IMG/VR virus record: IMGVR_UViG_2778261182_000001
Length of the DNA: 6,282 bases
Strand: one strand, 5' to 3'
DNA from: a virus
Lineage: Duplodnaviria; Heunggongvirae; Uroviricota; Caudoviricetes
Every line of letters begins with the position of its first letter. Positions within the stretch are counted from its first letter, which is position 1. This document shows positions 2,106-4,195 of the stretch, piece by piece. The notes beneath the pieces were generated by a model that ran no database searches, had not been told where the DNA came from, and saw nothing but the letters and a program-made list of their open reading frames with translations. The position numbers and the translations under genes are program-made.

Positions 2106-2492
2106 CTACATGATTCGTTCTACGTATCTGTCCATCTCCAGTCGGATATCAAGCATCATCAACATGCCATCAATAACTCCTTCCGCTTTCTGCAGGCGCT
2201 TACCAATACAGGTATCCGAACACCCATGCTTTCGTGCCAGCCCCATAAAAGTCATTCCACCTACGTAATAATCCACCAACAAATCGTGCAAATCCTGATT
2301 TTTCTTGTTCAACCGGGCCATACAGCCACAAATTATCATTGCATCATCATCAGAACACTGAGGGCGTGATTTCACTTTCGGCGGGATTAATCCTTTAAAA
2401 CCAGCAGCGATTGACGCCCAGGACACATCTTCGTGATTGTTTGCAGCCCATGCCCCCCACCGCTCCATAACCTGCTGAATATCACGCACCAT
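2106..2492 (-). CDS. Antitermination protein Q, phage 82 / QuuD-QuuQ type (128 aa from ATG 2492; alternative GTG start at 2501)
   Basis: Translation [61 protein letters not shown] ... matches the phage-82-type Q antiterminator family as I remember it. GGTGA sits 5 nt before ATG 2492. Start overlaps the rusA 3' end; promoter and terminator follow immediately. Confidence 0.85.
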
Positions 2493-2853
2493 CGTTATCA
2501 CCTGTAATTTCGTAAATCTTCACGCCCAGCCGACCACCAGGAACGCGCTGACCGCGCACAATATTGATTTCATCAAACTGCTCGTCGTCGATAAGCAGTC
2601 CCGCATGCGTCAGCGCATCCGGTGGTGCCTTCAGGATATTGTCCAGGTCACGACGGCGCTTATCCGGTGGCTCTGCAGTAATTTTTATTGCCAGCCTTCC
2701 GGACAGGTTTAATTTCAGTCGCTGCTGGCGAACAATAAGTGCCACATACCGGCGATAACGCTCACCGGCTTTTGATACAAAATATGTGCTGCCACGACGT
2801 CGCCAGTAGGCGTTCACCGTCGGCGGGTAAGGCAAAACAAACTCTATACGCAT
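2482..2853 (-). CDS. rusA: Crossover junction endodeoxyribonuclease RusA (Holliday junction resolvase), 123 aa
   Basis: ATG at 2853 with GAGG 7 nt upstream. Conserved RusA-like blocks [39 protein letters not shown]. Classic position just upstream of Q. Confidence 0.85.
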
Positions 2854-2865
2854 CAGTAACCTCTT

Positions 2866-3915
2866 TTACCCGAGCACGCCGATTGCAAAGGCGTGCTCAA
2901 GAAAACGAAAAATTAAATCAACCTGGGAACCATGCTTTTCTTCGAACGCCAGCGGATCCGCATGAAGCTCGTTGTGATGCTCCCGACACAGCGGTAGCGT
3001 GAAAATATCGTGGGATTTTGTTCCCATTCCGCCCTGACCATGACCAATCAGGTGATGGGGATCGTCGGCTGTCTTACCACAACACGCACACGGCTGTGTC
3101 TTTACCCAGCGTGTGTATTTCTCATTAACCCAGCGGCGACGTTTAGGTCGTTTCATGAAAGATTCCGGAGACTCCGGATCAACGGCAATGCTGACCACCG
3201 CCTTTTCCTGTGGTGAGTTCTGTTGCTGGTGGACGTGAGGCGGTAGCACAATATTTTTTGTGCGCTGCTTCAGTATGCTGGTGGCGGTCTGCTCTCCCGG
3301 TACGATGTCGCTTTCGCGGTACACCGCGCGGATTTTTTCCGCACGTAACCCCAGAGAACGACGTAATACTGCCTCCGGAAGCGCGTCCGCCACTTGATTG
3401 CAAACCGCCCACCAGGATAATTCAGCCAGCGATAACTCCCTCTCCTGCGTGCCATTCATTGCATGGCGTATGACGTCAATCATCCATGCTGACAGGTTTT
3501 GATGAGCAAGTTGCCCGAGTGATTCGGATGTCTGGTCACGCAGCTGGTTGTCGCAGTGCCAGCACAACACCATCGCGCCGGTACCGTAACGATGTATGAC
3601 GATTTCACTGTGATGATAGTCACCATGAGGCCACTGGCAGGATTTGACATGACGCAACAGCCAGTCAGACAGTGCCCCAGCGCCGCCAGCAGCACGAATC
3701 ACCCGCTCATCGCTGAAAAATGGCAGTAATGATTTATCCTCTGCCAGCGGCTGGCGAACGGCAGGGACGACTCCGGATGGCAGGCCGCACATGCTTTTCG
3801 GTTCCGGCTCCACCAGCACTCGAGGATTGTGAAATACCTGCATGGATTCACGACCTGGCTTAAGGACCACCAGCCCGAGTTCCGGTACCAGAACAGGTCG
3901 AAGTAATACCCGCAC
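2866..3915 (-). CDS. YdfU-like phage protein (DUF968 family), 349 aa, GTG start, Cys/His-rich C-terminus
   Basis: GTG at 3915 preceded by GGAGG with a 4-nt spacer. C-terminal CACCG ... HHLIGHGQGG ... CREHHNELH cluster. Same length and synteny (Q-proximal, next to a Rem-like and a hok gene) as Qin ydfU, from recollection. A weaker alternative ATG start exists at 3843. Confidence 0.75.
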   Translation of the reverse strand: MRVLLRPVLVPELGLVVLKPGRESMQVFHNPRVLVEPEPKSMCGLPSGVVPAVRQPLAEDKSLLPFFSDERVIRAAGGAGALSDWLLRHVKSCQWPHGDYHHSEIVIHRYGTGAMVLCWHCDNQLRDQTSESLGQLAHQNLSAWMIDVIRHAMNGTQERELSLAELSWWAVCNQVADALPEAVLRRSLGLRAEKIRAVYRESDIVPGEQTATSILKQRTKNIVLPPHVHQQQNSPQEKAVVSIAVDPESPESFMKRPKRRRWVNEKYTRWVKTQPCACCGKTADDPHHLIGHGQGGMGTKSHDIFTLPLCREHHNELHADPLAFEEKHGSQVDLIFRFLEHAFAIGVLG

Positions 3916-3916
3916 G

Positions 3917-4195
3917 TTACCTCCAGATCCGTTGCTGGAATGTGCGGGACGGACGCGGTGGGCGTTCGGAATAAGGCAGCCTGACAGAGATTATCCAGTG
4001 CCGATAATCGAGACTGAGGGCTTTCTTAACCTCGAACCCGCGCCTGCGGTAAGAATGAATCAGCCATTCGGCCTGTTCTGCAGTGCATGGAGGGTGCTGA
4101 AACCATTCAGACTTGAATGCGTGAGAATACTGCCCGTGCGTGCAGGCAAGAACGGGCGAATTATCAGAATTGTAATATTTTACGTTGCGTGCCAT
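3917..4195 (-). CDS. Hypothetical phage protein, 92 aa, translationally coupled to the YdfU-like gene
   Basis: ATG at 4195 with GGAGA 6 nt upstream. Its TAA stop (3919-3917) lies inside the sequence GGAGGTAACGTG that carries the RBS and GTG start of the next gene. No family recognised. Confidence 0.6.
   Translation of the reverse strand: MARNVKYYNSDNSPVLACTHGQYSHAFKSEWFQHPPCTAEQAEWLIHSYRRRGFEVKKALSLDYRHWIISVRLPYSERPPRPSRTFQQRIWR

Follow-up and report, generated by a model that had tools for sequence, protein, structure and literature searches.

Gene layout and junctions

Do genes packed end to end ahead of an antiterminator encode the parts of one molecular machine, or are they neighbours in an operon? 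The question is raised by a 6,282-nucleotide stretch of the virus record IMGVR_UViG_2778261182_000001 (hereafter, the window), for which the first-pass annotation proposed a co-translated DNA-processing and recombination module with the antiterminator gene Q at its distal end. All features considered here lie on the minus strand. The cassette comprises a 92-aa ORF encoding a small orphan prophage protein (p92; 3917..4195, SD sequence GGAG at 4206-4203), the gene for a YdfU-family (DUF968) protein of 349 aa (2866..3915), rusA, encoding a RusA-family Holliday-junction resolvase of 123 aa (2482..2853), and Q, encoding an antiterminator of 128 aa from ATG 2492 (2106..2492, SD sequence AGGTGA at 2503-2498). 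A rem-like gene of 83 aa (4262..4513; phrog_340) lies 66 nt upstream of p92, and a terminator-like hairpin, detected by consensus scan only, is located downstream of hok (4644..4661), where it bounds the tightly packed rem-p92-ydfU-rusA-Q run on the upstream side.

Two of the three junctions, read directly from the minus strand, are as originally described. At the p92/YdfU junction (GGAGG-TAA-C-GTG; 3913..3924), the SD sequence GGAGG (3924-3920) is followed by the p92 stop TAA (3919-3917), a single C (3916) and the start codon GTG (3915-3913), placing the stop of the 92-aa ORF inside the ribosome-binding and start sequence of the YdfU gene. The rusA stop TGA (2484-2482) and the Q ATG at 2492 overlap by 11 nt; the longest Q ORF starts at GTG 2501, which would extend the overlap to 20 nt, and in the homologous locus L001 PGAP annotates the start equivalent to the ATG. 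The YdfU stop was said to overlap the rusA ribosome-binding site; the two are indeed close, but the TAA (2868-2866) abuts the SD sequence AAGAGG (2865-2860) instead of overlapping it (2860..2868 in all). The rusA ATG at 2853 is 6 nt past AAGAGG, leaving a stop-to-start gap of 12 nt. In 29 loci from several Enterobacterales genera, the junctions flanking the DUF968 gene all fall between -29 and +21 nt, whatever the neighbour. Tight junctions are real, yet not special, being found around every YdfU homologue examined.

The family labels given to the three larger products hold. The 349-aa protein matches DUF968 (PF06147) over residues 160-346 (profile positions 1-171) with 257.6 bits (E 8e-77), against a gathering cut-off of 27.8 bits; phrog_96 'HNH endonuclease' covers its full length (E 1e-174), it shares 83-95% identity with E. 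coli proteins that carry the DUF968 name, and its AF2 model has a pLDDT of 86. Its translation starts at GTG 3915 and not at the internal ATG 3843, as judged from an N-terminal motif, MRxLL.P...LG, conserved down to 25-30% identity, and from a GTG or ATG at the homologous position in 29 loci. RusA and Q are unremarkable members of their families. The former scores 58.5 bits with Pfam RusA (PF05866; cut-off 22.8, E 1.4e-15) and matches phrog_34 (E 1.4e-54), and its acidic motifs RRRDLDN and DDEQ, whose Asp residues have an established catalytic role, align with RRRDLDN and DDAQ of K-12 RusA. It scores below the NCBIfam 'exception' model for K-12 RusA itself, which makes it a RusA family member, not the K-12 orthologue. 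The Q product scores 176.3 bits with Phage_antitermQ (PF06530; cut-off 26, E 2.5e-52).

A mosaic neighbourhood

The cassette is common: among 5426 complete E. coli genomes, 2318 contain 80% or more of the stretch from the 92-aa ORF through the YdfU gene to rusA. An identical four-gene layout is annotated in the E. coli prophage locus L001 (~92% identical), flanked by genes for replication protein P and a DnaT-like protein on one side and by DNA methylase, holin and lysozyme genes on the other. The position expected of a nin region, between replication genes and Q with lysis genes beyond, is thus seen in L001; the window itself carries neither replication nor lysis genes, and its operon context is taken from homologous loci.

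The Qin cryptic prophage of K-12 (hokD-rem-(unannotated 92-aa ORF)-ydfU-ydfT(quuQ)) has the hok, rem, p92, YdfU order of the window, the same TGGAGGTAAcGTG junction and GTG start, a p92 ORF (NC_000913.3 ~1644306-1644584, minus strand) ~96% identical to that of the window (4 differences in 92 residues) and a YdfU that is also 349 aa long; K-12-like loci (L003-L006) encode proteins 85-86% identical to the window protein. However, Qin lacks rusA, and YdfU is followed there by a Q of an unrelated family (Pfam Antiterm, PF03589), whereas the window has rusA and a Phage_antitermQ gene. The nin region of DLP12 and phage 82 reads ninE-ybcO-rusA-ylcG-quuD. DLP12 lacks p92, and its YbcO (DUF1364; 96 aa) consists of the HNH module only, whereas YdfU also has an N-domain of 195 residues and a disordered linker. 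In the ninR region of lambda (orf/ninB ... rap/ninG ... Q), accessory recombination genes lie tightly packed, some of them overlapping, between the replication genes on one side and Q on the other; one of their products is Rap, an HNH-type structure-specific endonuclease (PMC4118853, PMC5714182). The window resembles ninR in its packed accessory recombination genes ahead of Q, an HNH-type endonuclease among them; it differs in that lambda has no RusA, junction cleavage being done there by Rap, and a family profile search found no NinG sequence match in the cassette proteins.

Across related loci, some features are constant and others are not. The junction TGGAGG-TAA-(C/T)-GTG occurs in 9/9 Escherichia-group loci, in K-12 and in 80/80 IMG/VR loci; the order hok-rem-p92-DUF968 is kept in most IMG/VR loci as well as in Qin, and a DUF968 gene directly follows p92 in each of the 76 IMG/VR loci long enough to show it and in 10/10 Escherichia-group genome loci. 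RusA, by comparison, follows DUF968 in only 16 of these 76 loci and in 4 of 29 genome loci, and the distal slot is occupied by several unrelated Q families (Pfam Antiterm, Phage_antitermQ, Phage_antiter_Q) or by a DUF1133 Q-like protein. In 20 of the 29 genome loci p92 is not directly upstream of DUF968; antirepressors (Rha/ANT, KilA-N) or RusA are found there, with equally tight junctions. Kosakonia and Phytobacter have yet another order, p92-RusA-DUF968-Q, in which the p92 homologue precedes RusA and not YdfU. Related loci are a mosaic in which RusA is optional, the type of Q swaps and, outside Escherichia, so does the upstream partner; within Escherichia, only the 92-aa/YdfU pair is constant.

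Because the neighbours are mosaic and the junctions tight regardless, the layout points to nin-operon packing and provides no evidence of a dedicated four-protein machine. In our view, the region is likely to be the last part of a delayed-early ('nin') operon from a lambdoid Escherichia prophage, with the gene order hok/sok, rem, p92, a ydfU-like gene, rusA and Q. The genes probably adjoin one another through the mosaic make-up of nin regions, which are assembled from DNA-metabolism genes, rather than through an obligate complex of their products. Of the module originally proposed, the packing into one transcription unit with Q at its distal end is supported, and a dedicated four-gene recombination machine is not.

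A single co-translated DNA-processing machine, in which p92, YdfU and RusA would serve as subunits or as obligate partners and Q would be the distal gene of the module, appears unlikely. The tightness of all three junctions, the strict succession of p92 and DUF968 in Escherichia prophages, the joint presence of p92-like, RusA and DUF968 genes in Kosakonia and Phytobacter despite their different order, and one database protein (P0039) in which p92 is fused to YdfU would all fit such a machine; yet a partner that is missing from Qin and from most other loci, a p92 that is not directly upstream in 20 of 29 genomic loci and a distal gene replaced by unrelated families would not. The 'Rosetta-stone' fusions as a whole (p92::YdfU, YdfU::Q, YdfU::RusA, and the N-terminal part of YdfU joined to tail fibre, capsid or portal) occur once or rarely among database records and carry internal duplications or stop-loss or deletion joins; they resemble deletion, stop-loss or assembly products and were dismissed as evidence. 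The cassette is the usual early-gene stretch before Q in lambda-like Escherichia prophages, ordinary and already known. The nuclease idea and the RusA/Q neighbourhood have both been published: a 2017 paper assigned both DUF968 and YbcO to the His-Me finger superfamily and remarked on RusA, Q and antirepressor genes nearby (PMC5714182).

p92 and its coupling to YdfU

The constant partner of YdfU in Escherichia, p92, is a real protein-coding gene that evolves under purifying selection. Its product is predicted to consist of a variable, disordered tail (residues 1-26) and a conserved beta-alpha-beta-beta-alpha core (27-92). It is 92 aa long in Escherichia and Shigella, and shorter, 66-aa relatives occur in a few related genera of enterobacteria, namely Kosakonia, Phytobacter, Kluyvera and Enterobacter. 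A role in defence was considered and dropped: PADLOC returned no defence-system match for p92, YdfU, RusA, rem or DUF551.

Fold prediction places an RNA hairpin at the p92/YdfU junction (3909..3948), in which CCCGCAC (3948-3942) pairs with GUGCGGG (3915-3909), enclosing the start codon, and UUCCAG (3940-3935) pairs with CUGGAG (3926-3921), enclosing the SD sequence. The 48-nt junction fold has a predicted energy of -17.8 kcal/mol (z -2.67), and 2 of 200 shuffled sequences were as stable. The variants common among 80 IMG/VR and 10 genome loci either turn C into U, so that a G-U pair is retained, or alter the unpaired base; pair-breaking variants are limited to two singletons, and there are no compensatory double changes. 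Since the 5' arm is also under protein-coding constraint, conservation of the hairpin is not independent evidence for it. The junction hairpins are not conserved in other genera (z -1.0 to +1.6). Further along the cassette, a hairpin is predicted at the 3' end of the YdfU gene (z -1.96), with the rusA SD sequence left free, and no RNA structure is predicted at the rusA/Q junction (z 0.03). With its 1-nt gap, GTG start, SD sequence only 4 nt from the start and hairpin over both SD and GUG, the p92/YdfU junction makes translational coupling from p92 to YdfU plausible as far as sequence features go.

Could p92 then be a dedicated regulator of YdfU, an inhibitor, immunity protein or chaperone forming a nuclease-immunity-like pair whose protein ratio is set by coupling? 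The invariant adjacency and TAA-C-GTG junction in Escherichia prophages, the predicted sequestration of the YdfU SD and start codon and the purifying selection on p92 are all compatible with it, as is the toxicity of the distant YdfU relative Gp16 when overexpressed (PMC12817073). Nevertheless, most YdfU homologues outside Escherichia lack p92, the p92 homologue of Kosakonia and Phytobacter precedes RusA instead of YdfU, and family searches matched p92 to no known immunity or antitoxin family, its predicted fold being generic. We find this pairing no more probable than the single machine.

The HNH domain of YdfU and its relatives

The first-pass annotation saw a metal-binding or HNH-like nuclease motif in the Cys/His cluster near the C-terminus of YdfU, and Pfam and phrog profiles, predicted fold and motif agree, placing the region in a nuclease superfamily and not in a non-nuclease one. 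On sequence and model evidence, the C-terminal ~85 residues (~265-349; 2869..3123) are a presumably zinc-stabilised HNH (His-Me finger) nuclease domain, with a predicted beta-beta-alpha-metal fold. The cluster reads C276-A-C278-C279-G, H287-H288 and C310-R-E-H313-H314-N-E-L-H318; it contains all residues of a putative CxxC...CxxH zinc site (C276, C279, C310 and H313) together with the putative catalytic H288, H314 and H318. Of 71 family representatives, 64 retain all three histidines. The C279/C310 pair is complete in 55, missing altogether in 12 and reduced to one member in 4; wherever it is complete, position 313 is H or C.

The best structural match of the domain is Ref of phage P1 (PDB 3plw), a RecA-dependent HNH endonuclease, with 26% identity over 78 aligned residues. 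The corresponding profile, RecA_dep_nuc (PF16786), gives the window protein 14.3 bits (E 0.046), below its cut-off of 26.9, which leaves it outside that family; moreover, the N-terminus of Ref is basic and disordered, whereas that of YdfU is predicted to be a folded Cys/His domain. A further relative is the RecA-dependent nickase Gp16 (HNHc_6) of phiNM1, whose motif CxxCGK..AD..H ... LCREHHNExHA is nearly identical to that of YdfU (37% identity over 59 aa; hhalign 95%). The Gp16 residues that have been mutated, C148, C181, H184, H157, H185 and H189 (PMC12817073), align with C279, C310, H313, H288, H314 and H318 of YdfU, respectively. Gp16 scores above the DUF968 cut-off, and the phiNM1 early region also carries rusA. 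Conversely, HNHc_6 (PF16784) gives the window protein 21.1-22.6 bits, over residues 271-319 only and below its cut-off of 26.6; YdfU is thus related to HNHc_6 through the HNH core, without membership. HNHc_6 proteins (phiNM1 Gp16, Listeria/Staphylococcus Orf-HNH) have a NinB/Orf-like N-domain, from which that of YdfU differs, and phiNM1, a Staphylococcus phage, belongs to a different host phylum and phage lineage. Our literature search found no experimental paper or assay on any protein of the YdfU branch; its RecA dependence, substrate and zinc content are inferred by analogy with these distant relatives.

The N-terminal domain (residues 1-195; 3331..3915) follows the consensus CQ...YCH...LCWHHDN, with C93 and C118 invariant and Q94, W119 and D122 near-invariant in the family alignment; a beta-hairpin (105-118) followed by a helix (119-125) is predicted by AF2. 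The domain has no Pfam or PDB match and no Orf/NinB match, and a Pfam scan of 29 such domains returned no nuclease family. A second, degenerate HNH module was considered here: three weak alignments share a register with the HNH domain, none of them significant, and despite this suggestive register a second module finds no support (hhalign E 0.078 and 0.7% probability against the C-domain, 0.74 against YbcO and 0.3 against Gp16; BLASTP E 0.15). These 195 residues make up more than half of YdfU and show no relationship to any recognisable protein, so that some function other than the nuclease could prevail in its real activity.

This large unexplained domain is one reason to ask whether YdfU is instead a non-nuclease zinc-finger protein that binds DNA or regulates. 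His-Me fingers are treble-clef zinc fingers able to lose catalysis, certain members of the family carry the label of phage transcriptional regulator, and H288, H314 and H318 are lost in 4-5 of the 71 representatives (three such rows stand in the family alignment). The window protein, however, keeps all three histidines and the zinc ligands, as the great majority of representatives keep the histidines, and its best structural matches, Ref, IscB, Cap5, McrA and Gme HNH, are active nucleases, so we regard a non-nuclease as very unlikely. A packaging accessory working with terminase, like HK97 gp74, is a frequent role of phage HNH proteins (PMC12817073) but barely credible here, given an early nin position directly upstream of Q and far from the terminase genes in L001, a different architecture, and YbcO, Ref and Gp16 as closest relatives.

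Implications

In the nin-operon reading that we prefer, the genes would be transcribed together towards Q, and translation of YdfU would mostly depend on ribosomes finishing p92, which may open the hairpin hiding the YdfU SD and GUG and reinitiate 1 nt past the stop. Such coupling might keep the level of a potentially harmful nuclease low. YdfU would occupy the place that NinG/Rap has in lambda and YbcO in DLP12 and phage 82. There it would presumably nick or cut intermediates of recombination or replication, which may include D-loops bound by RecA, as they do for P1 Ref and phiNM1 Gp16; RusA, where present, would resolve Holliday junctions independently of YdfU. A bolder version, in which YdfU is a Ref/Gp16-like RecA-guided nickase of Gram-negative lambdoid phages, gated by p92 through the hairpin, with a degenerate, duplicated HNH/zinc module in its N-domain serving for targeting, is improbable as a whole.

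The genomic feature itself is of little importance, being one more copy of a very common, routinely annotated prophage module. It does draw attention to p92, a conserved gene that evolves under purifying selection, appears to be coupled to ydfU and is absent from the MG1655 reference annotation. The remaining value of the locus is that of a pointer: the HNH core of YdfU, an uncharacterised 'y-gene' product of K-12, is linked residue by residue to the RecA-dependent nickase Gp16, characterised only recently, and also to P1 Ref, and this link provides a concrete and cheap biochemical hypothesis for YdfU.

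A common nin-region gene arrangement

The window covers part of a lambdoid Escherichia prophage. On its minus strand, direct reading of the sequence places four genes in the order of transcription: p92, a 92-aa ORF (4195-3917), the gene for the 349-aa YdfU protein of the DUF968 family (3915-2866), rusA (2853-2482), and Q (2492-2106). Pfam confirms DUF968 (E = 8e-77, residues 160-346), RusA, and Phage_antitermQ, and phrog_96 of PHROGs, "HNH endonuclease," covers the entire YdfU protein (E = 1e-174). The junctions described in the first-pass annotation are confirmed, apart from minor corrections. 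The p92 stop, TAA 3919-3917, indeed lies inside the ydfU RBS-start sequence, between the Shine-Dalgarno (SD) sequence GGAGG (3924-3920) and GTG 3915-3913, and the rusA/Q overlap is 11 nt as claimed if Q starts at ATG 2492, the start chosen by PGAP in the homologous locus (20 nt from GTG 2501; rusA TGA 2484-2482). The ydfU stop (TAA 2868-2866), said to overlap the rusA RBS, abuts AAGAGG (2865-2860) without overlapping it; the rusA ATG lies 6 nt further, giving a stop-start gap of 12 nt. A 137-aa ORF antisense to the p92/ydfU junction (3842-4255, plus) is unsupported and most probably just reflects the opposite coding strand, and a promoter-like match (3981-4008, plus) is within chance expectation.

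In E. coli strain 2D (approximately 92% identity), PGAP annotates the identical four-gene layout, flanked by replication genes (P, DnaT-like) on one side and methylase and lysis genes on the other; the stretch is a classic nin (delayed-early) region terminating in Q. Of 5,426 complete E. coli genomes, 2,318 contain at least 80% of the 1,714-nt stretch 2482-4195 and 4,558 contain part of it; at least 597 stretches encoding p92 are present in IMG/VR, and the nearest YdfU homologue among species-representative genomes is from E. albertii (93%). In K-12, Qin has hokD-rem-ydfU-ydfT and DLP12 has ninE-ybcO-rusA-ylcG-quuD. The four-gene feature is thus a very common and already known nin-region arrangement.

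Directly downstream of Q, Rfam places isrK (1989-2065), a C4 antisense RNA (1880-1963), and a1/b1 target sites (2026-2078), all on the minus strand and followed by an ORF6N antirepressor gene (1255-1827, minus), a block resembling the P1 immI (c4-ant) and Gifsy-1 IsrK-AnrP modules (PMC4825925). The isrK/C4 elements occupy the expected place of the late promoter region; a promoter-like site lies at 2101-2072 (minus). A tRNA at 1-71 (minus; Rfam, 63 bits) is cut by the window edge, and ARAGORN made no call for it, presumably because of this truncation. Stx-type lambdoid phages commonly have tRNA genes downstream of Q. A hok/sok type I toxin-antitoxin locus (4730-5055, minus; Hok Pfam E = 3e-23, Rfam sok 120 bits) precedes a terminator-like hairpin (4661-4644, minus) and a rem-like 83-aa gene (4262-4513); the hok-rem-p92-ydfU block is kept in most related loci.

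p92 and its junction with ydfU

p92 is a real gene, with dN/dS of 0.05-0.27 for residues 27-92 and 0.3-0.6 for the variable, disordered residues 1-26. Only Escherichia/Shigella have the 92-aa form (130 clusters); 66-aa versions of its core are present in Kosakonia, Phytobacter, Kluyvera, and Enterobacter. The protein matched no annotated family, and its predicted beta-alpha-beta-beta-alpha fold gave generic structural matches only. In MG1655, rem and ydfU are separated by a 346-nt "gap" that contains an intact 92-aa ORF (NC_000913.3, approximately 1644306-1644584, minus), approximately 96% identical to p92 of the window (3917-4195) and with the identical TGGAGGTAAcGTG junction; this ORF is unannotated in the reference record, and PGAP annotates p92 in other strains.

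Several traits of the p92/ydfU junction fit termination-reinitiation coupling, which we infer for this pair: just 1 nt separates the stop from the start, the start is GTG, the SD stands 4 nt ahead of it, and a hairpin is predicted (-17.8 kcal/mol, z = -2.67) in which the last p92 codons pair with the SD and GUG. The hairpin variants commonly seen in nature either preserve pairing as G-U or alter the unpaired base. Since no compensatory changes were found among natural variants of the compared loci and the 5' arm is also protein-coding, the hairpin remains a prediction. At rusA, the SD stays unpaired in the predicted fold, and no RNA structure is predicted at the rusA/Q overlap. Translation of ydfU starts at GTG 3915, not at the internal ATG 3843: the N-terminal MRxLL.P...LG is kept down to approximately 25-30% identity in the family alignment, and a start codon stands at the homologous position in 29 of 29 loci (21 GTG, 8 ATG).

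An HNH domain in YdfU

As judged from sequence comparison, the C-terminal ~85 residues of YdfU are an HNH/His-Me finger domain. Pfam matches to HNHc_6 (E = 9e-5) and RecA_dep_nuc (E = 0.046) are weak and under cut-offs; hhalign of the family alignment (30 sequences, 25-85% identity) against YbcO, the HNH-only protein of DLP12, gave 85% probability (E = 6e-6, residues 274-348). Gp16 of Staphylococcus phage phiNM1, a RecA-dependent nickase characterised in 2026 (PMC12817073), is an HNHc_6 protein whose HNH core passes the DUF968 cut-off in Pfam. Its sequence, extracted from the phage record, shares CxxCGK..AD..H...LCREHHNExHA with YdfU (37% identity over 59 aa, hhalign 95%). The residues mutated in Gp16 (PMC12817073) align with the putative zinc-site residues C279, C310, and H313 of YdfU and with its putative catalytic-centre residues H288, H314, and H318. 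Of the 71 family representatives, 55 have both C279 and C310 and 12 have neither; the three histidines H288, H314, and H318 are retained together in 64. These alignments, mapped residues, and conservation support the initial reading of the Cys/His cluster as an HNH-like nuclease motif. That DUF968 contains an HNH zinc finger has been on record since 2014 (PMC4118853), and a 2017 paper put the family together with YbcO (DUF1364) in one superfamily, the His-Me fingers, and gave RusA, Q, and antirepressor as its neighbours (PMC5714182); our literature search found no experimental work on YdfU itself. In the phiNM1 early region (DQ530359), the Gp16 gene (4052-4723) lies approximately 3 kb upstream of rusA (7706-8113), so that the HNH-plus-RusA neighbourhood recurs in a Gram-positive phage.

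Residues 1-195 (3331-3915, minus) are confidently predicted to form a separate domain, joined to the HNH domain by a partly disordered linker (residues 224-241, pLDDT < 50). Its consensus CQ...YCH...LCWHHDN (C93 and C118 invariant; Q94, W119, and D122 near-invariant) would fall on a beta-hairpin (105-118) followed by a helix. No relatives of this domain were found in Pfam or PDB; it aligns in register with the HNH motif in three alignments, all non-significant, and may be a degenerate duplicated HNH module.

Neighbours of DUF968 genes are mosaic

The proposal that the four genes form a dedicated module is not borne out, the p92/ydfU pair excepted, by a comparison covering 80 loci in IMG/VR and 29 in species-representative genomes. 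Directly upstream of DUF968, the genome loci carry p92 (9/29, Escherichia group only), a Rha/ANT antirepressor (8/29), a KilA-N protein (5/29), RusA (4/29), or other genes (3/29). Directly downstream lie Q of the Phage_antitermQ (8/29), Antiterm (6/29), or Phage_antiter_Q (4/29) families, RusA (4/29), a DUF1133 Q-like protein (4/29), an unassigned protein (2/29), or, in one locus (L002), a short ORF of doubtful reality with a frame-shifted RusA match just downstream. Junctions on both sides are tight in all 29 loci (-29 to +21 nt) whichever gene adjoins DUF968, so the close spacing belongs to the operon as such. p92 precedes DUF968 with the identical TAA-C-GTG junction in all 76 IMG/VR loci that extend far enough; RusA follows in only 16 of these 76 and Q directly in 56. 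Four Kosakonia and Phytobacter loci (L014-L017, approximately 3433-5407; L014 is a MAG labelled Caulobacter) are reordered as 66-aa p92 homologue, RusA, and DUF968, followed by Q (L015, L017) or an unassigned ~200-aa protein (L014, L016), with all junctions overlapping or nearly so. Judged by these gene orders, both RusA and the type of Q are cassettes that can be exchanged.

In rare database records (P0265, P0309, P0310, P0290, P0245, P0040, P0047, and P0039), portions of YdfU are fused to tail fibre, tip attachment protein J, capsid, portal, Q, RusA, or p92. We rejected these fusions as domain architectures, as they resemble joins left by deletion in decaying prophages, products of stop-loss, or misassemblies.

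The interpretation of the four genes as a DNA-processing unit is partly supported, and any protein-protein contact among their products would be conjectural. RusA would be an optional neighbour acting independently, with Q at the operon's distal end. YdfU, placed in the slot of NinG/Rap or YbcO, is most likely a low-abundance HNH nickase or endonuclease, whose substrates would be recombination or replication intermediates and which, by analogy with Gp16 and with Ref, the RecA-dependent HNH endonuclease of phage P1, may be RecA-assisted.
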